Source: an uncultured virus (IMG/VR IMGVR_UViG_3300020020_000004) (Duplodnaviria > Heunggongvirae > Uroviricota > Caudoviricetes). From it: DNA of 20,000 nt. Under the pieces are notes generated by a model, which was given only the letters and a program-made list of their open reading frames with translations, was not told where the DNA came from and searched no databases. Location of the stretch: the IMG/VR virus record IMGVR_UViG_3300020020_000004. One strand, written 5' to 3'. This document shows, in pieces, positions 4,289 to 20,000 of this stretch (positions are counted from its first letter, which is position 1; each line of letters begins with the position of its first letter). Made by a program: the position numbers and the translations under genes.

Positions 4289-4734
4289 TTCACAACCTCT
4301 TCCACTAGCTCGTAGACCTGGAAAGTATAGACCGTATCAATTGCTGGCTCATCGAAGATGTATTCGCACGTCGGGTTTTGGTTTCCAATATATGGACCCC
4401 ATTTGTGCCAGCGCCATCCACCCTTATGAGATTGTTGTTTCTTATCGATCCTGACACAGACGAGAACAAGTTTCTCTGATCTCTCATTGAGAGCATAGGT
4501 GCTCACAACTTGACTAGGAGTATCGCAAACTCCATAATCGGGAAACGGAAGTTCCTCTACGTCGTCTTCTTTCCACCGCTCACGGAACTTGACACCGAGT
4601 TGATCGACCGACCAGTGTGTGGTCAAGTATATACCCTGCGCGATACGCTCTGGAATAAGATTCGGTCCACCTATGATGGAAAGAATCATGCCAATGTGAG
4701 ACGGAGGTTGACGAAATTCTACATCGACAAGCAT
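4285..4734 (-). CDS. Conserved phage hypothetical protein (GWRWHKWGPYIG motif)
   Basis: YGVCD and GGWRWHKWGPYIG motifs, which I recall from other phage hypothetical proteins. Confidence 0.7.
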   Translation of the reverse strand: MLVDVEFRQPPSHIGMILSIIGGPNLIPERIAQGIYLTTHWSVDQLGVKFRERWKEDDVEELPFPDYGVCDTPSQVVSTYALNERSEKLVLVCVRIDKKQQSHKGGWRWHKWGPYIGNQNPTCEYIFDEPAIDTVYTFQVYELVEEVVK

Positions 4735-4735
4735 C

Positions 4736-4939
4736 TTAACGCCCCGTTCTTCTTGCCATTAAAAGTCCCTCGAGAAAGAGGGCAGCTTTGATCACATTTC
4801 TCGCATCACCCGCTTTAAGAGCGATTGCAATGTACTCGTCATTGTTTCGTCTCTCATCAACTGTACTTGCTATCACATCCACGGCCGGGCGAATAAGAAC
4901 AAGTAGTTCTGTAATTGTATCGACGTCCATAACTGTCAT
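4736..4939 (-). CDS. Hypothetical protein
   Basis: 67 aa; ATGA overlap at 4936-4939. Confidence 0.55.
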   Translation of the reverse strand: MTVMDVDTITELLVLIRPAVDVIASTVDERRNNDEYIAIALKAGDARNVIKAALFLEGLLMARRTGR

Positions 4940-5124
4940 TTGATTTTCTCATAAATGAATGGAAACAAGATGGCGTCTGGCGAGTTACAGTTCACCGACA
5001 TACCGCACGATCTACATTCGAATCGTTCAGACTTGTCCATGTAGGTTCCGGAAACCCCATGCGCTTCGTCAATCATATGACGATACTCAGCAACTCCGCA
5101 ACCTTGGCATTTTGGATAGGTCAC
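4936..5124 (-). CDS. Zn-ribbon-like small protein
   Basis: CQGC...CRSC pair; GTG start abuts the upstream stop. Confidence 0.6.
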   Translation of the reverse strand: MTYPKCQGCGVAEYRHMIDEAHGVSGTYMDKSERFECRSCGMSVNCNSPDAILFPFIYEKIK

Positions 5125-5397
5125 TTAAGTGATCCTGTATTCGTCATTCTGGGGCGGCGGAACTACAGTTTTTCCATTGAACATCATAGCTAGTGCTGTT
5201 CGATTTTTCGTTCCGGTCTTAGTATAGGTCGTGTGTAATAACATCTTAACAGTTCCTTCGGCAACACTCATCAATTTTGCTATCTCTTTATTAGACAGCC
5301 CTTTGATGAGATGCTCGACAACTTCGCGCTGACGCGGTGTCAACTGTCCAATATTCGTAAGGGGACAGTCACGACACGGCCTCTCTATTGAGCCCAT
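5125..5397 (-). CDS. Stand-alone LuxR/GerE-family HTH transcriptional regulator
   Basis: LTPRQREVVEHLIKGLSNKEIAKLMSVAEGTVK...KNRTAL is the LuxR HTH signature; GGGAGG RBS. Confidence 0.9.
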   Translation of the reverse strand: MGSIERPCRDCPLTNIGQLTPRQREVVEHLIKGLSNKEIAKLMSVAEGTVKMLLHTTYTKTGTKNRTALAMMFNGKTVVPPPQNDEYRIT

Positions 5398-5426
5398 AAC
5401 AAACCTCCCAACTTATGTTGATCATA

Positions 5427-5858
5427 TTAAGTCCCCTTTCGATGTATTCGACGTCCAAGTCTACGTGACTCTTCGTGAGACAAACCTTTTATCCCAACCT
5501 GGTTAGCTGGCGGCATGCGCGGATGCGGAAAGTGAGTATCTTTCCATAGGTGGAGCACATAAGGGTGATTGTTGATGTGGTCTTCTTTAGGCACATGATA
5601 TTGAATAACTAATTCATTCTCTTCCCAGAATAGATCTTTAATGAAACACATTTCTTCCCAATTCGGACATCTTCTTTCGGTGCTCACACTAACATGTTCC
5701 CAACCGTGTGCATCCGGATGTTCAGCACCATTAGATATGATTCGTAATGACGTGCCGCAGGGACCCATCAATTGAAATGCGCCTGCCAGCTCCGATTTAG
5801 GATAACCGTAGCCCTCGAGACGTGCTGTCTTAAGTTTCGTCGGAACTACCCTACGCAT
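5427..5858 (-). CDS. Conserved phage protein (GWEHVSVS...PxWEEM...HPYxLHLW family)
   Basis: Motifs GWEHVSVS, RCPNWEEMCFIKDLFW and NNHPYVLHLW. Start placed at ATG 5858 (MRRVV) to minimise overlap with the Lar-like gene. Confidence 0.7.
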   Translation of the reverse strand: MRRVVPTKLKTARLEGYGYPKSELAGAFQLMGPCGTSLRIISNGAEHPDAHGWEHVSVSTERRCPNWEEMCFIKDLFWEENELVIQYHVPKEDHINNHPYVLHLWKDTHFPHPRMPPANQVGIKGLSHEESRRLGRRIHRKGT

Positions 5859-6131: not shown

Positions 6132-6572
6132 TTATTTTTGGAGGGTGGCTTTTACCCACCCGGTAAACCAAATCCGAAAAGTATCCCAATCGATTTCTGC
6201 AATAGCCTGCATCTGGTGACCCTCGGGAAGGGGCATTGAGATGTAGGTTCTAACTCGCCACGGTTTCTTGTTCTGTCTATAAATAAGAACAGGAATTGCA
6301 TTGTCTCGTTTTGCAGACGTCTCACATTGCTTCCACCAAGTATTGACACTAAGTGTCTCTTGCCGTTTAACTTCGACTGAGAGACCATAACAACCAATAA
6401 GATCAGAACCCCCAATAGCTGTCTGTATCTGATTCCTCTGGATGGTCGACATACCCTGAAGACACTCTTCTCTCGTATAACCTAATTCCGTCATTGCGAG
6501 GTAGATACAATAGTTCATTGCATCTGCAACCTCGCGCTCTCCCGTCTTCCCCTTGTTGACAATGTGAATCAT
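6132..6572 (-). CDS. Holliday junction resolvase-like PD-(D/E)xK nuclease (Hjc / T5 D14-like)
   Basis: KGKTGERE, GSDL, VEVKRQE and WWKQ motifs; located downstream of the polymerase. Confidence 0.75.
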   Translation of the reverse strand: MIHIVNKGKTGEREVADAMNYCIYLAMTELGYTREECLQGMSTIQRNQIQTAIGGSDLIGCYGLSVEVKRQETLSVNTWWKQCETSAKRDNAIPVLIYRQNKKPWRVRTYISMPLPEGHQMQAIAEIDWDTFRIWFTGWVKATLQK

Positions 6573-6703: not shown

Positions 6704-8785
6704 TTAAATTGGTTTCCCTTTAACCGTCAGCTGGTGACCTTTATTAAATTCGAATTCTTTTATAACTACATTTGGTTCTGTCAACTTAAGATATGTCTCC
6801 CAACTTATTGCTCCAATATCCCATAGAATACGTTGTGCCTCCTTAATATACCATTCATAGTTTATGTCGGTAGGGAGAGAGTCTGGAAGTACCATTAGTT
6901 CCCGAGCTCCGTCAGAACGAGGTACTTTGTTACCTGAAATAACATAGACTAATTCCCCCTCGACTCCCGTTGCATAATACCATCTAATAGCGCGACCGAT
7001 ATATTCGTTCCCTGCGGGCTGAACCCTCGCAGCGCCCCCGCGTACATTGCGGACACTGACAAACTTCGTTATATCTACACAAGCCCGGATTGTGGTTTCC
7101 AATGGAATTCCCTTAATGAGATAATCAATCACCGCATCTAAACAGACAGTTGCCGTCGGATTCTTATGCAGTTTCTGTTCAGGTTGTTCGGGTTTCGCAT
7201 AAGCTCCCTTAGATTTGGTTTTTCCATCCATTTTGATTGCGATGTAGTTATTAACGTCTCTGGAATAGAGAGCTTTGAACTCAGATCCCTCAGTTTCAAA
7301 ACGAGTATCAAATTCCCAGGTCTTAACGATCTCATTCATTTTGGCTTGAAGAGGGCGAGGACACTTAATCACAATACCATCTGTGTTGGCGCTGACAACA
7401 CGAATCCCCGCAAGCTCCAGACGTTCGATCAGAAGTAGAAGACTTAACTGGCCTGTAAGTGTAACCTGGAATAACAAATCAGGCGAATAGATAATAGAGT
7501 GCATGTTACCCAGCTTGCCGAACGTTCCATTGACTACGATCTTCAAAGACTCAGCGACAGCTTTATTTCCTGCTCGCTTTGCCTCAAGTCGTTTGTTGAC
7601 AATGGATCGATATACAGTAAGAAACGCATCGCCCATATGTTGTGGTGTCAGTCCAAGATTCAGAATGATGAATGGATAATAAGATGTCACATCTTTATCT
7701 AACAGTATAAAATCATTATCGCTCACGTGAGCAGCAGTCTGTTCGGAGCTGTGTAGACCTCCAATTCCCATACGATACACGGAACCATTCATTTCTATTG
7801 GAAGTTCTTTAATCTCTTTCGGCATTGCGATCGAGCCGGTATAGTCGACAATGAACTCGGCGTTTGCAACAACATTCAAAGCATATTTCATTAAGTCCGA
7901 TTGGAAGTTAAGATAATAAGGAACCTTATATTTATAGATTGTACCGACTTCAACTTTAGGTCTGGTTGGGAAGCGCCCTGTAATTCTTTTGAGTTCTTTA
8001 TTGATGACAGCTTCTGCAATTTGTGCGTCAGATTTCGAACGCAGATCTACGTTGAACTCATTGCTCAATTCGTAACGTAGTTCGATCTGTTCCTTCAGGC
8101 ATTCACGAAGGAGTTGGGTGTTGAGAGTATCGTTTACGCAATACCAACGAACAATGATAATCTGATCTTCGCTTAGAACAGTATCCGGATGGAATGGAAG
8201 ATCTTGCATCTTTTTTGCATGGAGTCTTCCAGCATATGTTTTCAGACTTGCGAACAGCGGAGCAACTTCGATTAAGTCGATATGATTAACACCGAACTTC
8301 TTAATCCTATATCTATGATGAATCTCATAAGGACTTACATTAAGTTTGATTAGAGCATCCGAGATCTCTTTTACGAATTCGGTCGATAAGCCTTCACAGA
8401 CACAATAACAGATTGTCAGATCGTACGAGATAGAATTGAATCCGATCGTAAGACAATTCGCCATGATCCAACGCAACCCGTGTTTATATTCGGATTGCGT
8501 AGAATCTAGATAGAATACTTTACCCGAAACCACATGGGTAAACACTGCGAGGAAATAGTTCGAGAATACTTCTACGTCGACTATAAGTTCTTCTTGCTTT
8601 ACAGAGATGTCAAGCAGTTCTTCATAGGTCAATAGCTGGACGGGAAATGCTCGGGCTTCTTCAAGTCCGGGCAAATGATCGAGCCAAGTTTGTTCAGGAG
8701 GAGTACGCTTCTCCCGTTGGATCTTTTCCTTCGGGGGCGGTGGCGTGTCATCCCAAAAGAGACCCTCGACGGGATTGCGCGGCAT
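6704..8785 (-). CDS. Family B DNA polymerase with 3'-5' exonuclease domain
   Basis: ExoI DVEVF, ExoII GFNSISYD, ExoIII YCVND; motif A DKDVTSYYP, motif B KIVVNGTFGK, motif C NTDG. Confidence 0.92.
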   Translation of the reverse strand: MPRNPVEGLFWDDTPPPPKEKIQREKRTPPEQTWLDHLPGLEEARAFPVQLLTYEELLDISVKQEELIVDVEVFSNYFLAVFTHVVSGKVFYLDSTQSEYKHGLRWIMANCLTIGFNSISYDLTICYCVCEGLSTEFVKEISDALIKLNVSPYEIHHRYRIKKFGVNHIDLIEVAPLFASLKTYAGRLHAKKMQDLPFHPDTVLSEDQIIIVRWYCVNDTLNTQLLRECLKEQIELRYELSNEFNVDLRSKSDAQIAEAVINKELKRITGRFPTRPKVEVGTIYKYKVPYYLNFQSDLMKYALNVVANAEFIVDYTGSIAMPKEIKELPIEMNGSVYRMGIGGLHSSEQTAAHVSDNDFILLDKDVTSYYPFIILNLGLTPQHMGDAFLTVYRSIVNKRLEAKRAGNKAVAESLKIVVNGTFGKLGNMHSIIYSPDLLFQVTLTGQLSLLLLIERLELAGIRVVSANTDGIVIKCPRPLQAKMNEIVKTWEFDTRFETEGSEFKALYSRDVNNYIAIKMDGKTKSKGAYAKPEQPEQKLHKNPTATVCLDAVIDYLIKGIPLETTIRACVDITKFVSVRNVRGGAARVQPAGNEYIGRAIRWYYATGVEGELVYVISGNKVPRSDGARELMVLPDSLPTDINYEWYIKEAQRILWDIGAISWETYLKLTEPNVVIKEFEFNKGHQLTVKGKPI

Positions 8786-8786
8786 C

Positions 8787-8972
8787 TTAGCCCAGTACTG
8801 TCCGGGTTGCGTCCTTCAGCTCTTGAACTGCTTTCGAGTATTCTTCTTTGGACATATCGTATGCTTGATGTGCCCGTTCCAAGGCTCGTTCATCCGCAGC
8901 AAATTTCTTTCGAGCTGCAATTAGATTGTCCTGGATAGTTCCGAGATCAACTGACTTGGTCTTGAGTGCCAT
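8787..8972 (-). CDS. Small coiled-coil protein between clamp and polymerase
   Basis: ATG 8972 (MALKTK) with AACGGAGG RBS (alternative start 9038); heptad-like sequence. Confidence 0.65.
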   Translation of the reverse strand: MALKTKSVDLGTIQDNLIAARKKFAADERALERAHQAYDMSKEEYSKAVQELKDATRTVLG

Positions 8973-9037
8973 TGCATCCTCCGTTTGGTTGATAAGTGAC
9001 TCTATGTACCCACAGTTACATATTTTCTTATTTGTCA

Positions 9038-9991
9038 TTATCCACGCATACCAACAATCGCACCACGCAGATTATCTCCAAAGAATAGAATGGGTTGTGG
9101 ATAACGTGTGAAATCTGCTGTCTCCGCAACTCCCTCGAGCAGACGAAGCATTTTAATCTGATAGATTCCACCAATGCCTAGACCGTTCACTTCGTAACTG
9201 GCACCAGTCTCGTCATCTATATGTGTTCTGAGAACCCCGTCTTTAATATGGATGCGAGTTAGATCATCTGAGAAAGCAGTTAGATTATCTAGAGCTGGAA
9301 ATAACCGAGGATCAACCGGAACTGGATCACATCTATGATCTAACACCTTACTGATGTCGGGCCACTCTGTGACGTAGAGTTGAGTACGAATCCATCTACC
9401 ACCCGGGTAATGAAAAGTGACAGAGTTATTATCAAGTTGGAGATGAGATGGGGGTTCCCCAACTCGGATCACTTCTTTAACTGCCGACCCTGGAATGTTA
9501 ACCACAAATGGGATGTCGATCGCAAGCCAATATTCAATCACGCAGACGTTATTCGTTGCGAAAGCAGATTGACCACGCAATAGAATACCATTAGTCCAAG
9601 GACGGGATGCATCGTTGCCAACGAACGTACTGATCTTATCGAATGCTCTAAATAGTGCTGCGCCATCAATCTGAACAATCTCGCCCGACGGCTCAGGATG
9701 TGTTGCATCCGTATCCACGGTTTCGATAAAGGCTTTGAAGTTACCACTCTGTACACGAAGACGTTTCTTCTCAGTCAGAGTGAGAACAACTTCCTCTTCA
9801 CAGTTGGAGATTGCACGGACCAATGTCTCAGCCTTTGGTACGCATTCCAAGTCCAATGCAATGGGACTGCAGATGGCTAGGTTACCATTGAATGATCGAA
9901 CAGTTCCTTTTTCAATACGGAAGTGAGTCATTGCGGGAACAAAATCTTTCTTCGCAACGGCACCTTGTACGAAGCGAAGTTCCTTTAACAT
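9038..9991 (-). CDS. DNA polymerase III beta-type sliding clamp (DnaN-like)
   Basis: VAKKDFVPAMTHF, SRPWTNGILL, AFATN and WPDISKVL parallel the beta-clamp conserved segments; adjacent to the polymerase. Confidence 0.8.
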   Translation of the reverse strand: MLKELRFVQGAVAKKDFVPAMTHFRIEKGTVRSFNGNLAICSPIALDLECVPKAETLVRAISNCEEEVVLTLTEKKRLRVQSGNFKAFIETVDTDATHPEPSGEIVQIDGAALFRAFDKISTFVGNDASRPWTNGILLRGQSAFATNNVCVIEYWLAIDIPFVVNIPGSAVKEVIRVGEPPSHLQLDNNSVTFHYPGGRWIRTQLYVTEWPDISKVLDHRCDPVPVDPRLFPALDNLTAFSDDLTRIHIKDGVLRTHIDDETGASYEVNGLGIGGIYQIKMLRLLEGVAETADFTRYPQPILFFGDNLRGAIVGMRG

Positions 9992-10918
9992 CTAAAATAG
10001 CTCCCTTACTCTACCTTTGTAGATGCCGCCGTTAACTGCGTCGACCATAGCGTTTATAACACCATACGACCACAGATTGTAAGCTGCGCGAGACTCATAA
10101 ACGGTGGACAACCGTTCGTAGGTGAAACCCATATCCTCAAGGTGCTTGAAGATAACATCTTGCTCGATCGGAGACAGTGTAGTGGCGTGCTGACCAGCGT
10201 CGTGTCGTTGTGGACTCTTTGATGAGACGTTGACTGGACCCCATTGTGGTGTCTGGATACCACCGAACGCAGCAGTCTGCACCCAGGAGGATGAGTCGCA
10301 ACTATACCAAGGATATGCTTCCATAATTGGAATGGAGGTGATTCCGAATCCGTGTACTTTGAGGCGTGGACGACCACTGCCATCGACTAGATATCTATCC
10401 CAAATTCTGTCGAGCCATTTCATAAGCTGCGTCGAAGAGCTTCCGACCATACCACCTAGAGTGATGTAGTCGTAGTTCTGAACGTAGTGTTCGAGGTAAC
10501 GTTCATCTTCGCCCGCGTGGAAGCAAGGCAACGGACGGACGCCTCTAGCTTCCATTTCGCACTGGTTACGATATGTCTGAAGTGGGTCACCAATGCCGTC
10601 AAGTACGGATGCCATTACGATTCCGTCTTCGACACGTATGATATCTAGATTGCGTTTGATGTACTCGCAATATTCGGCAACCGAAAGATCTACCTTGAGC
10701 GTATAGGCAGAGAACGCTCCTGAGTCAAGAAACACCCGTACCTTATCTTCGCGCATGGCGTCGACAAACTTTTGCTTCCCGACGTAATGATATGATTCCA
10801 GAATGTGCGGGACGGCATCAACTAACCGTTTCTCATTGTCAGTCAAATTCTGATAGCGACCGGAGTTACCTCCAGCACGATATCCGTTGGTGTAAATGGC
10901 GGCTAAATAAATATGCAT
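9992..10918 (-). CDS. dpdA: DpdA-like DNA 7-deazaguanine transglycosylase (TGT fold)
   Basis: FLDSGAFS, LGGMV, KVHGFG and YSCDSSSW are TGT-type motifs; no C-terminal Zn site; lies in an operon with folE/queD/queC/queE. Confidence 0.85.
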   Translation of the reverse strand: MHIYLAAIYTNGYRAGGNSGRYQNLTDNEKRLVDAVPHILESYHYVGKQKFVDAMREDKVRVFLDSGAFSAYTLKVDLSVAEYCEYIKRNLDIIRVEDGIVMASVLDGIGDPLQTYRNQCEMEARGVRPLPCFHAGEDERYLEHYVQNYDYITLGGMVGSSSTQLMKWLDRIWDRYLVDGSGRPRLKVHGFGITSIPIMEAYPWYSCDSSSWVQTAAFGGIQTPQWGPVNVSSKSPQRHDAGQHATTLSPIEQDVIFKHLEDMGFTYERLSTVYESRAAYNLWSYGVINAMVDAVNGGIYKGRVRELF

Positions 10919-11167: not shown

Positions 11168-11722
11168 TTATTTCATCCCAAGGAATTCGGAACGAGCAGC
11201 TTCTTCTGTTTTAAAGACACCTCGTAAAGCACTAGTGACAGTGTAGTGTCCCTGTTGACAAATACCTCGCGACTCCATGCACAGATGGCGGGCCCGCACT
11301 ATAACGCCACAACCCAGAGGGTTCAGTGCTACGCTAATGGCGTCGGCAATCTGACACGTTAGACGTTCCTGTACTTGTAGGCGGCGTGAGAAAATCTGCA
11401 GCAACCGCCCGAGCTTACTCAGACCAACGATACGTTGATGAGGTAGATATCCAATCGTCGCAGTGCCGAAGAACGGAGCAAGATGGTGCTCACAATGGGA
11501 ATAGAAAGGCAGGTCTTTGACGACGACCATCTCATCCACCCCTTCGGCACCATCAACAAAGGTCTTGAGCACATCGATAGGATCGATACCATAACCAGAA
11601 GTCCAGAACTCCCAGGCGCGAGTTACACGATCCGGTGTTTCTATTAGACCTTCTCTATTTGCATCCTCACCTGGGATATTTCTAAGAACAGCTCTGAACG
11701 CAGTGCGTAGAGTTTCGGTCAT
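11168..11722 (-). CDS. folE: GTP cyclohydrolase I
   Basis: REGLIETPDRV, SHCEHHL, GLSKL, RRLQVQERLT and HLCMESRG; start ATG 11722 with AACGGAG RBS. Confidence 0.95.
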   Translation of the reverse strand: MTETLRTAFRAVLRNIPGEDANREGLIETPDRVTRAWEFWTSGYGIDPIDVLKTFVDGAEGVDEMVVVKDLPFYSHCEHHLAPFFGTATIGYLPHQRIVGLSKLGRLLQIFSRRLQVQERLTCQIADAISVALNPLGCGVIVRARHLCMESRGICQQGHYTVTSALRGVFKTEEAARSEFLGMK

Positions 11723-11741
11723 GCCCCGCTCCGTTGTGGTA

Positions 11742-11770
11742 ACTATATATTGGATCTTAGGCTTTTGCAA
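11742..11770 (-). promoter_or_regulatory. Sigma70-type promoter P3 (internal, upstream of folE)
   Basis: cTTGCAA (11770-11765), 17 bp spacer, TATAGT (11747-11742). Confidence 0.7.
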
Positions 11771-12155
11771 GTAGATTTCGTAGGAATACTTTAATGTCTG
11801 CAAACTCTGATAAGATAACAGTGGAATGAAATTGAAGCCAAGGCCCGACAGGTTTATTGTTAGGACTCCAGATAATGACTGGGATCCTCAACTGATAGGC
11901 AAAGAGTATCTCCATTCCCGTGCCCCATGACGCTATGTTGACTAGGGCGAGAACTGCATCACACTTTCTGATGGCGTTGAAATCATTTGTAACGATTCGG
12001 CGTGCAGCTTCTTCGTTGTCTTCTTCGCCAACAAATAGTTCGATCTGGGTCGGGTCGACTACCTCCCAACCTTCAGGCATCTTTGATGTAAGACTGCGCC
12101 GCCATGTAATTGGGTCAGATGCATTCTGTATTGCACCAGCGAGATAAAGTTTCAT
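11757..12155 (-). CDS. Nucleoside 2-deoxyribosyltransferase / DNPH1-like nucleotide N-glycosidase
   Basis: YLAG, NDFNAIRKCDAVLA and SWGTGMEI..AYQLRIPVI motifs of the NDT superfamily, with the catalytic Glu retained. Confidence 0.8.
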   Translation of the reverse strand: MKLYLAGAIQNASDPITWRRSLTSKMPEGWEVVDPTQIELFVGEEDNEEAARRIVTNDFNAIRKCDAVLALVNIASWGTGMEILFAYQLRIPVIIWSPNNKPVGPWLQFHSTVILSEFADIKVFLRNLLAKA

Positions 12156-12340
12156 GGTTGTTCGACCTTAACGAGTCTCCATTCGGCGACCCATTGTTCT
12201 TTCAGATCACCATTATTCCACCACGATACTTGAATCGTTACATCGTGAGGGTAGAAAGCAAAGCCTATCACAAAGGCGTTGACGCTACCTCCATCGATAC
12301 GTACTACATCTCCAAACGTGAACTTGCTTTCGAGTTTCAT
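12152..12340 (-). CDS. Small SH3/KOW-like hypothetical protein (YodC/DUF2158-like pattern)
   Basis: KFTFGDVVRI...VSWWNNGDLKEQWV; ATGA overlaps at both ends. Confidence 0.55.
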   Translation of the reverse strand: MKLESKFTFGDVVRIDGGSVNAFVIGFAFYPHDVTIQVSWWNNGDLKEQWVAEWRLVKVEQP

Positions 12341-12789
12341 AACTCCTCCATAAAGATTGCAGAGTTGGCACCATGCTCACACACTTCAACAGACCGCATG
12401 CGTACACGCGGATAGTAACCGTTGTCTACTAACCAGACAACACCACACTCGTAGATCATGGACGCAAACGCTTCGCATCCTGTGGCAGGAACAATTGTTA
12501 TCTGGGCTAGCCCTAGGCCTGCCATAATTTCCAAAGCGGAACGATGTGGATCATCTTCGGCAATCAATAGACGGTGATCGAATGTCTTTTCTAACCAACC
12601 TTTGAAACCTTTAAGGCTGCCGAAGTCTACAACCCAATTGCGATCGTCGAGTTCTTCTGCTTCAAATTCAATACGAACAGAGAGAGCATAGCCGTGGAGA
12701 AAGCGACAGTGGCTCTGTGCTTTCCATTGTCGGAAACAAGAGGAGAGACCTATGTCGTGACCATACGTCTTTGTTGAAATGTAGGTCAT
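12337..12789 (-). CDS. queD: 6-carboxy-5,6,7,8-tetrahydropterin synthase
   Basis: HCRFLHGY, VVDFGSLK, FDH and a C-terminal V.E...NSA motif. Confidence 0.92.
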   Translation of the reverse strand: MTYISTKTYGHDIGLSSCFRQWKAQSHCRFLHGYALSVRIEFEAEELDDRNWVVDFGSLKGFKGWLEKTFDHRLLIAEDDPHRSALEIMAGLGLAQITIVPATGCEAFASMIYECGVVWLVDNGYYPRVRMRSVEVCEHGANSAIFMEEL

Positions 12790-14181
12790 TTATTTCTCCT
12801 CTGAGTTCGCGTACTGAATGACCTCAGGTATCTTATTAATTTCGAATGCGATTCGCCGCATGTGACAGGGTCCACAAGTGCCACAGTGGATTGGGCCCGC
12901 ACGATAGCAACTCCATGTGAGGTGAAGTGGGGCGCCGATTCTATGGCCAAGCTCGACGATCTCATGTTTCATAAGATTGCCTACTGGCATGATAGCTCTG
13001 ACTCGCTTTCCATCTGCTACTGCGAAAGGAAGCATGTCGTTAAATCGATTAATGAATTCAGGTTCGTTATCGGGATAAGCACCTGCTTCTTCTAAGTTGT
13101 TACCGAGTACGATTGTATTGATTCCTCGAGCTTCGGCAAACGCAGTTGCGAGAGCAAGCATCACAAGGTTACGTGCCGGGACCCATTCATGTGCAAATTC
13201 AGCTCCCGCTTCACCGCCTGCAATCTTACTGTCTGCTTGAAGTAATGGAGAGTCTTCTTTTCGATAGATTCCTATCGGGATGAAATGCAACGGTACGCCA
13301 AGATAGTTTGCAACATCTTGAACTGCATTTACTTCTGATAATTCTGCCCGCGATCCATAAAGGAAATGAACTAATTCAATTTCATAGCCTTGAGCTTTGG
13401 CCTCTGTTGCAGCAACGACACTATCCATTCCGCCGCTACAAATGACAAGAGCTTTCTTACCCCAAAGGCGCATTATATATAGACGCTCATTATCATTAGG
13501 CCCAAATGCCCAGGCTGAATAAGGTTCAAGCATTTCAGGAACTAGGCCTCTTATAAAATAATCTCGCGAGCTTGCAAAGAAGATCCCATATTCTCGTCTA
13601 GCAATCCAGATGGGTCTATAGTTGCAGGCAGCTAATATCAAATCTGGAAAGTCATCATGTGTTGCTAAGATTGCGTAGCTCCCTTTGAGTTTGCCAATGA
13701 TAAATTGAAATACATATTTTGCGAGTTCGCGATTCTGGATATCGCCTGCGGCAGCAAGTTGCTCAACGATCGCAACGCTGTCGATTCCCGTTGTGGCACC
13801 TTCATCCGTTCGCAATTCTTTATCGTTTGCGATAGTTCCGTTGTGGACGATATTCCACTTGTTGAGTGAATAGGGTTGTTGATCGTATTCGCGTTTGTGG
13901 CGTACGAACTCCGTCGTTGGCTCAGCACGAAAATTACCAATCATATTCTTAGTTGGACTAAAGATATTAAGACTAAAAAATTCGTGATATGTTTCCCAAC
14001 CTGTTGATCTTATAATCGATTTATTTTTATGACCTACAGTAAGACCGTCTCTAACATAATATCCCCATCCATCGCGGCCACGTGCAAAACTTTCATTTCC
14101 AATATAATTTAGAATACGATTGGCATCAAGACGTTGGTATGAAGTTGCATTCCAGATGAGGGCTCCTATGATCGCGCACAT
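12790..14181 (-). CDS. queC: Glutamine amidotransferase class II-QueC fusion (Gat-QueC)
   Basis: N-terminal nucleophile Cys2 (MCAIIG), RGRDG, HNGTIAN and IDS; QueC part has SGGMDS, VPARN, YPD and SCY...CGTCGPC. Confidence 0.93.
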   Translation of the reverse strand: MCAIIGALIWNATSYQRLDANRILNYIGNESFARGRDGWGYYVRDGLTVGHKNKSIIRSTGWETYHEFFSLNIFSPTKNMIGNFRAEPTTEFVRHKREYDQQPYSLNKWNIVHNGTIANDKELRTDEGATTGIDSVAIVEQLAAAGDIQNRELAKYVFQFIIGKLKGSYAILATHDDFPDLILAACNYRPIWIARREYGIFFASSRDYFIRGLVPEMLEPYSAWAFGPNDNERLYIMRLWGKKALVICSGGMDSVVAATEAKAQGYEIELVHFLYGSRAELSEVNAVQDVANYLGVPLHFIPIGIYRKEDSPLLQADSKIAGGEAGAEFAHEWVPARNLVMLALATAFAEARGINTIVLGNNLEEAGAYPDNEPEFINRFNDMLPFAVADGKRVRAIMPVGNLMKHEIVELGHRIGAPLHLTWSCYRAGPIHCGTCGPCHMRRIAFEINKIPEVIQYANSEEK

Positions 14182-14182
14182 C

Positions 14183-14899
14183 TTATTCTACCCCAAGATA
14201 TTTGTGGATTTGCAATTGTAGCTTATAGCCGAACTTCATACAAGACTCAGTTACGGCTTTGATATTCCGTTCGTTGTGCGCAGGATCCTTTGTATCCATC
14301 GGTTGAAGATAGATTGGCTTATCCCAGTCAACAGGAGGTCGTGCAAGTTGCGGATGAGCAGTGTGGCCGAGGGCGCGAATCGGAAGGCCGTCTTCCGGAT
14401 TCATACTGTCCGCATCGAGAACGTATTTAAGGCAGAGTGCCTTATCCAAAAGTATTGGATTGATACGTCCAGTCTTTGGGCTGCAGACGATATGAACTCC
14501 ATGAAAATGATCGATCCGAGTATATATCGAATACTCGTAATCGCTCGGAGGGAGAGTTCCATTACTCTCAACCTGAACGAGATGTCCAAGTGCTATAAGA
14601 TGTTCAAACAGATTAGTTAGATTTTGCCTGAACGGTTCCCCGCCCGTAATAACTACGAGACCCTTCGGTAGGCTCAGCGAGTTCACATACTTCGCAACAA
14701 CCGATGGGTGCGCAAGGCGTCGCCCCTGGGTATATTCGGTATCACATCCTGGACACTGGAGATTGCATCCAGCGAGTCGAATAAAAACGGCGGGGAACCC
14801 ACTGAAAGGTCCCTCGCCCTGGATGGTGTAGAAGATGCTGTGGATGTCGAGCAACCCCTCAGAGTGGTCGACCGACTTCTCGATTGCTTGTAGATTCAT
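14183..14899 (-). CDS. queE: 7-carboxy-7-deazaguanine synthase (radical SAM)
   Basis: IFYTIQGEG, FIRLAGCNLQCPGCDT (CxxxCxxC), ITGGEP, ESNGT and QIHK. Confidence 0.95.
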   Translation of the reverse strand: MNLQAIEKSVDHSEGLLDIHSIFYTIQGEGPFSGFPAVFIRLAGCNLQCPGCDTEYTQGRRLAHPSVVAKYVNSLSLPKGLVVITGGEPFRQNLTNLFEHLIALGHLVQVESNGTLPPSDYEYSIYTRIDHFHGVHIVCSPKTGRINPILLDKALCLKYVLDADSMNPEDGLPIRALGHTAHPQLARPPVDWDKPIYLQPMDTKDPAHNERNIKAVTESCMKFGYKLQLQIHKYLGVE

Positions 14900-17566: not shown

Positions 17567-18229
17567 TCACTTCTCCCATGCTTTGATACAGACTGGTACA
17601 ATCGAACGTGCCAACTCACGCATTACGTCAGCATAGACACGTATTTCATACTGCGCATGTTGATCACAACGCAGTGTTAGAAATCTCATCAAATTCAACA
17701 GATCGACCGTTGCGAACATGTGGCTGTAGGTTGCCACAGGAAGGACGGAACGTGCCAGCTCTCGGGGAACTCCATCTTCAAGTAGCATACGATAGGCACG
17801 AAATGCGTGCTCGCAAGTTGCTTTGATGTGGGCAGCGGCAACTGGGTCGGGTTCTCCCTGAGCTCGTGCCTGCTTGGTGTCCTTTGACTGTGTGCCAATG
17901 TGTTCGGGTCTCGGAACATAGAACTCTTCAGGGAGCGGCTTGTAGCGTGCCGACAATTCGTTGTAGCTCCAGGTTCGATGTCGATGCCATTGACGTAGTA
18001 CGAAGATAGGCGCCTTCACTTCGAAGGTAAAGACCACAGCTTCGAATGGGGTTGTGTGGTGATTGCGCCAGAGATAATTGATCAGCTTCTCGTCGCCACT
18101 TTGATCCTCACCCGCACGCCAAGCAGCGTCATATGACACCCGAGCGGCGCGAACCACGGAGAGATCATTACCCATACTGTCGACCAGGCGAACGAAACCA
18201 TGATCGAGAACGTCAATCTTTTCTACCAT
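17567..18229 (-). CDS. thyX: Flavin-dependent thymidylate synthase
   Basis: VVRAARVSY, HTTPFE, RQWHRHRTWSYNELSARY (RHRx7S), ELARSVLP and HAQYEIR; start ATG 18229. Confidence 0.95.
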   Translation of the reverse strand: MVEKIDVLDHGFVRLVDSMGNDLSVVRAARVSYDAAWRAGEDQSGDEKLINYLWRNHHTTPFEAVVFTFEVKAPIFVLRQWHRHRTWSYNELSARYKPLPEEFYVPRPEHIGTQSKDTKQARAQGEPDPVAAAHIKATCEHAFRAYRMLLEDGVPRELARSVLPVATYSHMFATVDLLNLMRFLTLRCDQHAQYEIRVYADVMRELARSIVPVCIKAWEK

Positions 18230-18678
18230 TGGAGTCTTTCCAGTTTCCAGTAACCATAGACGCAACGTCTGCCACCTCGGGATGGGTCGTGGGTATCGTG
18301 AATGACCCCGTCGATCACTGCGGTAAGATGCTTGCTGACGGACACTACCAGTCCCCCGGACGGTAGTTCGTTTGCCCGCAAATGAACTCTACAACCAGAC
18401 CCGATAAACATGGTCGGAGTCCAGATGAAGTTAAGACTCTCCATGTAGCGTTTGAACAGAACACTCTGGGTATAGATACCATAGAATGCGCTGTGAAGAC
18501 CTGCTGTTCGACGACCCCTAGTCTTGGGCATCGTAGCATTAATCCATGCCATATCACTATAGACTTTAGAATACGGTATGTTCGTGACAATAGCAATCGA
18601 ACGGGTGACACAATCGCCTGCCTTACCTGTATATCCGTAGGCGGCGCGACCTCCATCGTTTCTGATCCAATGCGTCAT
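18223..18678 (-). CDS. Conserved phage protein with candidate Cys-His-Asp triad (papain/C39-like)
   Basis: NDGGR, GDCVTRSIAI, SKHLTAVIDGVIHDT and CVYGYW; start ATG 18678. Confidence 0.7.
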   Translation of the reverse strand: MTHWIRNDGGRAAYGYTGKAGDCVTRSIAIVTNIPYSKVYSDMAWINATMPKTRGRRTAGLHSAFYGIYTQSVLFKRYMESLNFIWTPTMFIGSGCRVHLRANELPSGGLVVSVSKHLTAVIDGVIHDTHDPSRGGRRCVYGYWKLERLQW

Positions 18679-19151: not shown

Positions 19152-20000
19152 TTAGAATGGGATCTCTGCGTCCAGTTCGGTCTTCTGTAGTGTAGCCAGA
19201 GAGGTAGCGATCGTTGGAACCTCGTCTGACATCTCCTCCATTCCAAAGGCAGTGCCATCGAAACAGATAGCCATGATTTCTGGATATGGATTCTTGTTAA
19301 CCCAGACACGGATGTGCGTTGGGTGATTGATTTCTTCGAGGCGAGTGAGTCCCTCGTTAACTGTGGTTGGAACAGGATTGTTTAACGTATCGTTCCATTT
19401 TGATTTCATTCTCACCTTCCACCAAGCTCGCGCACGACGCTGGGCGAAGGCATTACTGTTCTCGAATGTTACGAATTCGGTGTACATCTTTAGGCCACAG
19501 TAGTATGAGACGCGCATCGACACAGAACCTCCGCCGTGCTTTTCATGCCGTGCTGCGCTGATGTGGTCCACCTTGAAAACTTTCGTTATAGGCAGCTCTC
19601 CCTTCAACGGGCTGATCGAGCTTGCTGTCTGCACGATATTGAGCTGGAATTTGAATTCGTTGCCACAATGTGGGCAGATGCGAACGCTGGCGTGAACGTA
19701 GGTCTGGCAGACATCGCAGAGTTTGACCGGTGCGTCCCGCGTTCCTTTCGACTTAGGAGGCTCGGGAATTACGGGGTCATTGATTGGCCCCAAGCGGCGC
19801 GTGTTACCAGCGTAGTCTAGAACTAAACAGTCGAGCTTGCCACTGGCTTTAATCGCAGCCATGCGCTGTTCTAGCGTCTCGCTGTTATGTCCAGGAGGAT
19901 AGACAGGTCGTGTGCCTCGCCCTAACATCTGGACCCACAACACTGTGGACATAGTTGGACGCAGGACAATAATCATATCCACTGTCGGATCGTCATAGCC
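19152..20000 (-). CDS. Superfamily 2 helicase (RadD/YejH-like), C-terminal part; truncated by the window edge
   Basis: Frame is open to 20000: GYDDPTVD (motif V), QMLGRGTR (motif VI), VLDYAGN..RLG and a CDVC...CPHC Zn finger. Confidence 0.9.
   Translation of the reverse strand, partial: GYDDPTVDMIIVLRPTMSTVLWVQMLGRGTRPVYPPGHNSETLEQRMAAIKASGKLDCLVLDYAGNTRRLGPINDPVIPEPPKSKGTRDAPVKLCDVCQTYVHASVRICPHCGNEFKFQLNIVQTASSISPLKGELPITKVFKVDHISAARHEKHGGGSVSMRVSYYCGLKMYTEFVTFENSNAFAQRRARAWWKVRMKSKWNDTLNNPVPTTVNEGLTRLEEINHPTHIRVWVNKNPYPEIMAICFDGTAFGMEEMSDEVPTIATSLATLQKTELDAEIPF

Follow-up and report, generated by a model that had tools for sequence, protein, structure and literature searches.

The window, that is, the whole stretch of 20,000 nucleotides from an uncultured virus of the class Caudoviricetes (IMG/VR record IMGVR_UViG_3300020020_000004), carries on its minus strand the gene dpdA of a DNA guanine transglycosylase, followed by the genes of a sliding clamp, a small protein and a DNA polymerase; genes for deazaguanine synthesis are located upstream of dpdA (Table 1). 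As the earlier note had read from the sequence, dpdA abuts the clamp gene: the TAG stop codon at 9992–9994 is directly followed by the ATG of the clamp gene at 9989–9991. The translations also bear out the two protein termini on which that note had built its proposal. DpdA ends with ...NGGIYKGRVRELF, the last residues being GRVRELF, and the family B polymerase starts with MPRNPVEGLFWDD (in a fuller stretch MPRNPVEGLFWDDTPPPPKEKIQREKRTPPE) and thus has the sequence VEGLFW within a Pro-rich arm.

Table 1. Genes and sequence features of the dpdA region (positions refer to the window)
Feature	Position	Strand	Basis or remark
dpdA, DNA guanine transglycosylase (TGT superfamily), 308 aa	9992–10918	−	phrog_887, AF2, Foldseek
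Beta-type (DnaN-like, three-domain) sliding clamp, 317 aa	9038–9991	−	phrog_947, AF2, Foldseek
Small ORF between clamp and polymerase, 83 aa	8787–9038	−	no family matches
Divergent family-B DNA polymerase, 693 aa	6704–8785	−	phrog_1252, PDB matches
DpdA C-terminal tail, residues 297–308, GGIYKGRVRELF	9995–10030	−	proposed clamp-binding motif
AGGGAG, codons R305–E306, Shine-Dalgarno sequence for clamp gene	10001–10006	−	sequence
Polymerase N-terminal motif, residues 4–12, NPVEGLFWD	8750–8776	−	proposed second clamp-binding peptide
GLFW inside polymerase N-terminal motif	8753–8764	−	
Polymerase Pro/Lys-rich linker, residues 13–31, after N-terminal motif	8693–8749	−	sequence
Upstream deazaguanine synthesis genes (context)	11168–14899	−	PHROG matches
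FolE	11168–11803	−	PHROG match
QueD	12337–12789	−	PHROG match
Gat-QueC	12790–14181	−	PHROG match
QueE	14183–14899	−	PHROG match

The fold, the family signature and the setting within a preQ0/G+ synthesis cluster all place DpdA in the TGT superfamily. The protein belongs to phrog_887 (E 6.7e-90), and its AF2 model (pLDDT 94.6 overall) matches in Foldseek the folds of TGT, ArcTGT and DpdA, including 7ui4. It is 65–69% identical to the DpdAs of Seuratvirus and Nonagvirus and 65–73% identical to those of named Queuovirinae-like phages. Insertion of preQ0 into DNA has been demonstrated for the DpdA of 9g and CAjan (Hutinet et al., PMC6884629), and by homology we infer the same activity for the enzyme of the window. 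By analogy, the presence of Gat-QueC predicts a 9g-like pathway leading to dG+.

The clamp belongs to phrog_947 (E 9.1e-77). Its AF2 model (pLDDT 91.2) has the three-domain fold of the E. coli beta clamp, with about 357 aligned columns against 7azc, 4tsz and 2pol, and Foldseek matches it to the E. coli and P. aeruginosa beta clamps with E 1e-19, a TM score of 0.82 and an identity of about 17%. The clamp profile A2 finds PDB beta clamps (5w7z) with E 2.1e-6. The Pfam DNA_pol3_beta domains gave no match to the window clamp at E 0.01 or better; its sequence is too divergent for these models and the assignment as DnaN-type clamp therefore rests on the fold. A homologous clamp from a more distant lineage is recognized by PF02767 (4.9e-8) and PF02768 (3.4e-5). 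The polymerase belongs to phrog_1252 (E 1.7e-202) and matches the family-B structures of Sulfolobus (1s5j, 5.6e-5) and of E. coli Pol II (1.1e-4), the similarity to Pol II and the family-B palm region spanning residues 394–534. As the Pfam search returned no match, we regard it as a divergent member of family B. The small ORF of 83 amino acids has neither a Pfam nor a PHROG match, and its homologues are found only in the closest relatives (loci L024, L025, L027 and L028). No clamp loader was seen within the window. In distant lineages a clamp loader (PF13177) is encoded near the locus.

The earlier note had named a non-conserved terminal xxLF as the outcome that would speak against its proposal; the opposite was found. 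LF-COOH forms the end of DpdA in 120 of 121 close homologues, with QELF as ending in 100 and RELF in 15 of these 121 proteins. The entropy is 0–0.07 bits at positions −3 to −1 and 1.95–2.96 bits at positions −14 to −10, −8 and −7, where the residues vary freely, so that the motif is conserved in the orthologues while its flanks are not. Across the 40 DpdAs of alignment A1, which are 29–71% identical, F308 is conserved to at least 90% and the consensus tail is FxxxQxxLF. The wider DpdA family has Q at the canonical position, with tails such as QMELF, QLGLF, QIGLF and QETLF, and tails with one to three residues beyond the motif (LFD, LFDE, LFS) still keep LF. The pair [LMFIV]F lies zero to three residues from the C-terminus in 75 of 150 DpdA cluster representatives versus 14 of 1156 other ORFs (80 amino acids or longer) from the same loci, and the tail pattern of DpdA thus exceeds chance. 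In a 99%-complete relative (69.6 kb) terminal motifs of the DpdA and polymerase type are present only on DpdA and the polymerase among the ORFs longer than 150 amino acids. In the AF2 model the tail is a coil following the helix 274–296, and the last eight residues have a mean pLDDT of 64 compared with 94.6 for the whole protein. The model thus predicts a flexible tail with the motif in a disordered terminus.

Bacterial clamp-binding motifs follow the consensus Qφx[L/M][F/L] or Qφx[L/M]x[F/L]; binding to the clamp is possible with LF alone, which serves as the anchor, and the Gln is dispensable (PMC11139829). They are found in the C-terminal tails of Pol II and Pol IV and in the disordered N-terminus of Hda (PMC11139829). 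The tail of the window, VRELF, fits the consensus at positions 4 and 5 but not at positions 1 and 2, where the Gln and the aliphatic residue, respectively, are missing. The tails of the relatives, from QMELF to QETLF, fit the consensus in full. The statement of the earlier note that the canonical Gln is missing is correct for the window but does not extend to the family, and the absence of Gln is particular to the lineage of the window.

A second candidate peptide is found at the N-terminus of the polymerase. The pattern G[LMFIVW][FWY]W is present near the start of all 70 polymerase ORFs that follow the clamp gene in related loci, and a variable Pro/Lys-rich stretch is found at the equivalent place in the polymerases of the relatives. 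The polymerases beside the clamps are of family B or family A and both have an N-terminal GΦFW or GFF peptide: all ten family-A polymerases tested carry GΦFW or M-x-GFF at their N-terminus, as does the split UDG-exo/PolA enzyme beside the clamp. Considering the first long ORF after the clamp, 133 of 170 have G[LMFIV]F within their first 60 residues. The tail type of DpdA tracks the type of the polymerase, with LF tails in 89 of 98 loci with a GxFW polymerase and GF tails in 22 of 42 loci with an M..FF polymerase.

The pairing of dpdA with the clamp gene is near-universal. Of the 188 distinct IMG/VR DpdA loci that could be evaluated, 183 have a beta-clamp-like ORF downstream of dpdA and on its strand; since gene pairing and tail type both track phylogeny, such counts do not represent independent events. 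The gap between both genes has a median of 179 nt and is at most 10 nt in 64 loci, and in one of the five exceptions the clamp gene lies just beyond the edge of the locus. On GTDB contigs a clamp is present in 26 of 39 DpdA loci; if only the 25 loci are considered in which DpdA is complete and 2.5 kb or more follows downstream, the number is 23.

Binding was modelled by co-folding two copies of the clamp with residues 272–308 of DpdA, along with three controls. The score was 0.51, the best of the three controls reached 0.03, and with an unrelated protein in place of the clamp the score was 0.00. At least 48% of the contacts are shared between the runs, and the pLDDT of the partner is at least 43. 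Among solved complexes 116 of 157 reach the pass mark, among mismatched pairs 2 of 215, and passes scoring 0.60 or less include only 18 of the 157 solved complexes but both passing mismatches; these benchmark counts hold only roughly here, because our own alignments and three chains were used. In addition, clamp–peptide complexes have already been solved, and the pass may therefore reflect structures on which the predictor was trained. The co-fold, a kind of check that the earlier note had proposed, gives weak support for docking of the DpdA tail on the clamp dimer.

We lean towards the view that the DpdA of the window is a client of the beta-type sliding clamp and a new entry in the list of such clients. 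The conserved tail resembling a clamp motif together with the adjoining clamp gene suggests that the modification is probably hooked to DNA replication. The globular TGT-fold body ends at about residue 296, and the flexible 12-residue tail presents a terminal Leu-Phe-COOH. With this end DpdA would dock on the clamp of the adjoining gene, in its hydrophobic cleft, and possibly also in that of the host beta clamp. The GLFW peptide of the polymerase, on its Pro/Lys-rich linker, may use the same cleft. A clamp dimer has two clefts and could hold polymerase and DpdA at once; the clamp might either carry both together or leave to DpdA the clamps remaining on the new DNA. Guanines would then be swapped for preQ0, later dG+, on freshly replicated phage DNA, perhaps right behind the fork. 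The suggestion of the earlier note that the phage clamp recruits both enzymes is partly borne out, and more so than the note itself had expected, by the conservation of the tail, the motif of the polymerases and the gene pairing, whereas the binding itself is a prediction of the co-fold, with the weak support given above. More tentatively, terminal GΦF and LF might form a docking code private to phage beta-clamp modules, which unrelated polymerases carry at the N-terminus and DpdA at the C-terminus, with the clamp as a tool-belt making insertion co-replicative. In that case 7-deazaguanine insertion would be a step of the replisome and not a free-diffusing “post-replication” reaction, and a phage DNA hypermodification enzyme would have been tied to a sliding clamp on solid grounds for the first time.

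Several observations count against a role of the clamp. In E. coli, where the phage clamp was absent, the DpdA of 9g together with Gat-QueC modified 9–18% of the G in a plasmid (PMC6884629). In mycobacteriophage Rosebush about 28% of G is reported to be modified (PMC6884629), and the DpdA of phage Tres, which belongs to the same species, lacks an LF tail and is not encoded next to a clamp gene; high levels of modification thus do not require a tail. In Cellulophaga phage phi38:2 a beta-clamp gene lies close to the Que cluster, yet the DpdA of this phage is without an LF-type tail.

Three other explanations of the tail were weighed. It could be a by-product of the gene junction, shaped by the ribosome-binding site and the stop/start overlap, with the adjacency of the genes being inherited module order. 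Stop/start abutment is indeed commonplace in phage operons, and AGGGAG, 9 nt upstream of the clamp ATG, lies within the codons of R305 and E306 and is thus dual coding. R, Q and K at position −4 all preserve an AGGAG-like hexamer (AGGGAG, CAGGAG, AAGGAG), GAG makes up 39 of 51 Glu codons at position −3 (44% in gene bodies) and CAG 31 of 37 Gln codons at position −4 (56% in gene bodies). The Q/R/K-E dipeptide thus doubles, at least partly, as the Shine-Dalgarno sequence of the clamp gene, so that in this lineage selection on the residue itself is clear for L and F only. The LF pair, however, sits in the spacer, where the ribosome-binding site imposes no sequence. In 91 distinct LF-ending genes all six Leu codons are used at position −2 (TTA 24, CTG 14, CTC 14, TTG 14, CTT 14, CTA 11) and both Phe codons at position −1 (TTC 59, TTT 32), which argues for selection on the protein. 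Gln at position −5 has no CAG bias (CAA 23, CAG 11), and the longer tails mentioned above retain LF. A mere junction effect is in our opinion highly improbable.

The tail could also dock elsewhere, on the polymerase, an SSB-like or helicase component or, for channelling, Gat-QueC, or it could mediate self-association of DpdA. Flexible tails with a hydrophobic end and a free carboxylate are docking devices of a general kind, TGT enzymes work as dimers, and channelling of preQ0 to DpdA has been suggested (Hutinet et al., PMC6884629). The misfit of the window tail at positions 1 and 2 and the weak co-fold would suit such a partner too. We nevertheless think it unlikely, as the tail of the wider family fits Qφx[L/M][F/L], as the clamp gene is the one kept beside dpdA whereas the neighbouring polymerase family changes and the position of the Que genes varies, and as the co-fold score vanishes once the clamp is replaced by an unrelated protein. 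Finally, the tail might bind a clamp, but that of the host, DnaN, with the phage clamp serving the phage polymerase only. The high activity of the 9g enzyme in E. coli would agree with this, and many tails of the family are textbook bacterial motifs (QLGLF, QMELF); contig L286 (357 kb) encodes a DpdA with the tail QETLFT, and the phage-type clamp is absent throughout its genome bin. On the other hand, the phage clamp is paired with dpdA almost everywhere, the tail type shifts together with the clamp and polymerase lineage, and the low identity of the phage clamp to E. coli beta makes a private specificity plausible. Binding to host DnaN instead of the phage clamp therefore seems to us a rather improbable reading.

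A tether between DpdA and the phage clamp would explain in concrete and testable terms how newly made phage DNA is targeted. How phage DpdA finds and modifies up to a third of all guanines of a genome within an infection cycle is not explained in the literature consulted. The tether would add a base-exchange enzyme to the clamp clients and would also indicate that polymerases of two unrelated families have in common an N-terminal peptide for clamp docking that can be exchanged. As the cultivable relatives 9g, CAjan, MiCath and iggy and an E. coli expression assay exist, the proposal is directly testable.

We found no published link between the DpdA tail and a sliding clamp. The deazaguanine module of the Queuovirinae (9g, CAjan, iggy) has, as far as described in the available text, the same gene set and order, FolE-QueD-QueE-(Gat-)QueC-DpdA, beside polymerase genes. 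Insertion is called “post-replication” and the position next to polymerase genes is noted in PMC6884629, PMC10484667 and PMC10516641; in the available text of these papers the word “clamp” occurs 0 times in each, “C-terminal” occurs 0, 0 and 1 time, the single use referring to QueF, and neither the tail motif nor a clamp link is described. The same idea, a phage DNA-modifying enzyme riding the clamp during replication, is known from an older in vitro claim for T4 alpha-glucosyltransferase and the gp45 clamp. According to the accessible part of a 2025 preprint (bioRxiv 10.64898/2025.12.06.692756) this interaction is absent in vitro and in vivo, and thus there is no solid precedent for a phage modifying enzyme on a clamp. 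The T4 system also differs in its trimeric clamp, its enzyme and its chemistry.

No base-exchange enzyme is among the clamp partners named in the available part of PMC11139829. Nevertheless, the bacterial beta clients Pol II, Pol IV and Hda resemble the DpdA tail in having a short linear motif with a Leu-Phe end in a disordered terminus, and their clamp has the same three-domain DnaN fold. The placement of the motifs, C-terminal on DpdA and N-terminal on the phage polymerase, is as in Pol II and Hda. Unlike the clamp of the bacterial clients the window clamp is phage-encoded, with an identity of about 17% to E. coli beta, VRELF lacks the canonical Gln, and the phage polymerases carry GΦFW at the N-terminus in place of a C-terminal or internal motif. 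In eukaryotes, DNMT1 and UNG2 are tethered to PCNA via PIP boxes. Although clamp family and motif are different and these enzymes serve maintenance methylation or repair and not anti-restriction hypermodification, the likeness to the reading proposed for DpdA is that a DNA-modifying or base-excising enzyme is linked to the replication clamp through a short peptide.

The genes of dpdA, the sliding clamp and the polymerase are found close together, and the minus strand carries every gene of the dpdA region. The TAG stop codon of dpdA (9994-9992) directly abuts the ATG of the clamp gene (9991-9989), and the genes upstream of dpdA, coding for FolE, QueD, Gat-QueC and QueE, constitute the gene set of a 9g-type dG+ pathway. 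This junction, the DpdA tail and the start of the polymerase had been described in the earlier note, and the description is right in all details.

Features of the dpdA region and further open reading frames of the window
Feature	Position	Strand	Remarks
dpdA	10918-9992	minus	308 aa, C-terminal end ...NGGIYKGRVRELF
clamp ORF	9991-9038	minus	317 aa
ORF between clamp and polymerase	9038-8787	minus	83 aa, no family; homologues only in closest relatives
polymerase ORF	8785-6704	minus	693 aa, N-terminal start MPRNPVEGLFWDDTPPPPKEKIQREKRTPPE
small sigma-factor-like protein	5125-5397	minus	phrog_3282
RusA-like resolvase	6132-6572	minus	
thymidylate synthase	17567-18265	minus	
helicase fragment	19152-20000	minus	

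A PHROG search assigned DpdA to phrog_887 (E 6.7e-90), the 317-aa protein to phrog_947, "processivity factor" (E 9.1e-77), and the 693-aa protein to phrog_1252 (E 1.7e-202); about half of the remaining window ORFs are devoid of a PHROG match. Neither DpdA nor the clamp nor the 83-aa ORF was assigned to a Pfam family, and a sub-threshold match of the polymerase to CoV_NSP15_N (17.8 bits, cut-off 27) was taken as chance. When compared to the PDB, the polymerase matched family-B enzymes at E 5.6e-5 and 1.1e-4. The AF2 model of DpdA (pLDDT 94.6) shows a TGT fold and resembles 7ui4, the solved structure of a bacterial DpdA. The clamp model (pLDDT 91.2) superposes on the beta clamps of E. coli and P. 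aeruginosa (Foldseek E 1e-19, TM 0.82, ~17% identity), and a profile built from 31 phage clamps reaches the beta clamps of the PDB at E 2.1e-6. Model and profile together identify the protein as a divergent three-domain clamp of the DnaN type. Its residues 308-317, LRGAIVGMRG, are among the most conserved parts of the clamp, with R309 and G310 invariant and G314 conserved in at least 90%; compared by sequence alone, the M-R-x end resembles M362-P363-M364-R365, which line the cleft where E. coli beta binds peptides, according to the accessible text of PMC11139829.

As a megablast search of 6704-10918 against the phage collection gave no match, relatives were sought at the protein level. The nearest named phage by DpdA is Pseudomonas phage MiCath (73% identity), followed by phages of Pantoea, Escherichia (Seuratvirus, Nonagvirus), Sphingomonas, Alteromonas and Vibrio. 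Seven named phages, infecting six host genera, share the arrangement DpdA, (small ORF), clamp and polymerase, and each of their DpdAs ends in LF. In MiCath, slur01, BA3, S0112 and RHEph04 an unrelated small ORF of 68-97 aa lies between dpdA and clamp instead of the 83-aa ORF.

The earlier note had proposed that the xxLF tail binds the clamp and had named lack of conservation of this tail as an argument against the proposal. The terminal LF is, however, conserved: in a set of the window DpdA and its 120 closest cluster representatives (identity at least 71%), 120 of the 121 proteins end in LF, mostly as QELF (100) or RELF (15), and the residues just upstream vary freely. Forty more distant DpdAs (29-71% identity) have the consensus ending FxxxQxxLF, whose final Phe is as conserved as the core residues. 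Among 150 DpdA representatives clustered at 50% identity, [LMFIV]F is found at 0-3 residues from the end in 75, compared to 14 of 1156 other ORFs of the same loci. In the AF2 model the last helix extends to residue 296, and the 12 residues beyond it form a coil modelled at a pLDDT of ~64. Tails of the family include QMELF, QMGLF, QLGLF, QIGLF, QETLF and QPTLF. According to the accessible text of PMC11139829, canonical beta-clamp-binding motifs have the form Qφx[L/M][F/L] or Qφx[L/M]x[F/L] and are carried by the C-terminal tail, as in Pol II and Pol IV, or by a disordered N-terminus, as in Hda; LF, the anchor in subsite I, binds even alone, and the Gln boosts affinity without being essential. 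Of this motif the window tail VRELF retains the LF anchor alone.

Six of the 150 representatives (P0127, P0131, P0146, P0157, P0161, P0171) are oversized, with 535-637 aa. Fusion of DpdA (308 aa) with the clamp (317 aa) is ruled out for the forms of 596-637 aa, which carry an insertion of ~310 aa after YPW[YH] instead. The insertion splits the conserved YPW[YH]-S[VI]DS, starts with Cys, ends with ...GN and is followed by Ser; it thus looks like an intein in the active-site region. P0127 gave no match to Pfam.

A conserved gene end which abuts the next gene could also be conserved on account of the ribosome-binding site of that gene. In the window the codons of R305-E306 read AGGGAG, 9 nt upstream of the clamp ATG. 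In 91 distinct dpdA genes with a terminal LF, the Glu at -3 (counting the last residue as -1) is encoded by GAG in 39 of 51 cases, compared to 44% in gene bodies, and Gln at -4 by CAG in 31 of 37, compared to 56%; one close relative has the tail KELF, encoded with AAGGAG. Thus, the Q/R/K-E pair in the lineage of the window doubles as the Shine-Dalgarno sequence of the clamp gene. The canonical Gln is indeed absent from the window tail, as the earlier note had remarked, but given this overlap its absence carries little weight for or against clamp binding. The same explanation fails for the two terminal residues: Leu at -2 uses all six codons (24, 14, 14, 14, 14 and 11 times), Phe at -1 uses both (59 and 32), and Gln at the canonical position -5 is without CAG bias (CAA 23, CAG 11). 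This free codon choice indicates that the LF ending and, in the wider family, the Gln at -5 are selected as amino acids. The ribosome-binding site therefore accounts in part for Q/R-E and not for the whole motif.

Several observations argue against clamp docking of the tail. The DpdA of phage 9g together with Gat-QueC yields dG+ at 9-18% of plasmid G in E. coli (Hutinet et al. 2019, in the accessible text of PMC6884629), so that the phage clamp is dispensable there; host DnaN could act as a stand-in. The same text reports dPreQ0 at ~28% of G in mycobacteriophage Rosebush; Tres is a phage of that species, and its DpdA lacks an LF tail and is neighboured by ParB-like and terminase genes, not by a clamp gene. 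The LF tail is absent from all five distant-clade DpdAs inspected (Bipper, Tres, BCD7, phi38:2, Sonali), of which Cellulophaga phi38:2 alone has a beta-clamp gene nearby although its DpdA is tail-less. These results together show that a tether is not a general requirement for heavy modification.

The pairing of dpdA with a clamp gene extends far beyond the close relatives. Three scans of IMG/VR, each started from another DpdA subgroup, yielded 238 loci with 195 distinct DpdA ORFs; 4 cut by the locus end and 3 with too little downstream DNA were left out. A beta-clamp-like ORF is located downstream on the same strand in 183 of the 188 evaluable loci, at a median gap of 179 nt and with 64 gaps of at most 10 nt. 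The five exceptions include L149, whose clamp lies just beyond the locus, and L158, whose clamp gene is fragmented. In this contig (L158/L190, ~4731-5735) it is in three pieces (107, 63 and 79 aa), so that either the gene is broken or the assembly is wrong. The profile of the phage clamp alignment had missed the clamps of L220, L241, L249, L254 and L258; a profile rebuilt from the first matches recovered them. The tails of the 188 loci are of the type [LMFIV][FY] in 129 and G[FL]x[LIFVM] in 33 cases; many of the 26 which match neither pattern still finish in similar hydrophobic pairs. On GTDB contigs a clamp is found in 26 of 39 loci, and in 23 of the 25 with full DpdA and at least 2.5 kb downstream; one of the two exceptions has its clamp just outside the locus, and for the other (L286) the whole genome bin is devoid of a phage-type clamp. 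As nearly all IMG/VR loci have a clamp, the presence of tail and clamp can be contrasted only against the distant DpdA clades. One DpdA lineage has a QueE-like gene of the radical-SAM type between the clamp and the family-A polymerase (8196-8888 in L104, where it matches PF04055; likewise in L108, L109, L121 and L141), so that genes for deazaguanine synthesis and replication are interleaved there, beyond mere adjacency.

The second peptide proposed in the earlier note, VEGLFW at the N-terminus of the polymerase, is conserved as well. In the first 80 loci the clamp is followed by 70 polymerase ORFs, and every one of them has G[LMFIVW][FWY]W ~7-9 residues past its probable start. The motif takes the form R-x-D-x-x-G-Φ-F-W-x-D and precedes a variable Pro/Lys-rich stretch; the C-termini of these ORFs show no conservation. 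Three relatives with a polymerase of the window type have no Pfam match and are family-B-like, and the same peptide is found on family-A polymerases (10 of 10 tested match PF00476, E 1e-37 to 1e-68). The peptide is thus common to two unrelated polymerase families. G[LMFIV]F occurs in the first 60 residues of 133 of 170 first long ORFs past the clamp, whereas only 142 of the 443 distinct ORFs that reach 350 aa or more in the same loci have it. In the most distant DpdA lineage, where tails read for example QGFGL or KGFF, the gene after the clamp encodes a UDG-plus-exonuclease protein starting with M-K-G-F-F; beyond it lie the genes of a protein with a family-A polymerase domain and of a clamp loader. 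The type of the DpdA tail tracks the type of polymerase: an LF-ending DpdA is present in 89 of 98 loci with a GxFW polymerase, and GF in the last 8 residues of DpdA in 22 of 42 loci with an M..FF polymerase; common descent confounds both counts. Of the ORFs >150 aa in a relative of 69.6 kb (G011, 99% complete), only DpdA and polymerase carry the terminal motifs.

A gene of L133 (8358-11915) codes for a phage polymerase of the DnaE type, which has PHP, Pol III alpha and finger domains and, at its C-terminus, a UDG-superfamily domain (PF03167, residues 984-1117). Sister lineages have a split family-A polymerase, and there it is the exonuclease subunit that bears the UDG domain (L189). Near the clamp the distant lineages have a clamp-loader-like AAA+ protein of ~304 aa (L189, 6504-7415, PF13177, E 3e-25), with similar ORFs in L124, L151, L195, L208, L238 and L247. 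No clamp loader was recognised within the 20-kb window.

Co-folding of two clamp copies with DpdA residues 272-308, using the phage clamp and DpdA alignments, gave weak support for binding: the score was 0.51 (runs 0.51, 0.50 and 0.57), compared to 0.03 for the best of three controls, with a contact agreement between runs of at least 48% and a partner pLDDT of at least 43. Of 157 solved complexes 116 attain the pass mark, as do 2 of 215 mismatched pairs, yet only 18 of the 157, along with both passing mismatches, pass at scores of at most 0.60. The alignments and the three chains used here depart from the calibration, and these counts therefore apply only approximately. Because clamp-peptide complexes have already been solved, the pass may reflect memory.

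Taken together, we suggest that the DpdA tail is a putative clamp-docking peptide which would direct base exchange to phage DNA during or just after its replication, and we regard this as the likeliest reading and a reasonably probable one. The tail would dock DpdA on the clamp, and guanines would be exchanged where the phage DNA is being or has just been replicated. Among the publications listed, judged in part by title and abstract, none links DpdA or deazaguanine to sliding clamp, processivity, replisome, clamp-binding or DnaN, and none joins Queuovirinae genus or subfamily names with clamp terms. The accessible texts of PMC6884629, PMC10484667 and PMC10516641, supplements apart, do not contain the word "clamp"; they term the insertion "post-replication", and one remarks on adjoining polymerase genes. 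An older proposal placed the T4 alpha-glucosyltransferase on gp45, which was not reproduced according to the available part of a 2025 preprint (bioRxiv 10.64898/2025.12.06.692756). Clamp docking of DpdA is thus absent from the searchable literature and is directly testable in the existing phage and E. coli systems. DpdA would resemble the known clamp clients in using a short motif, but would differ from them in that the client is a DNA hypermodification enzyme.
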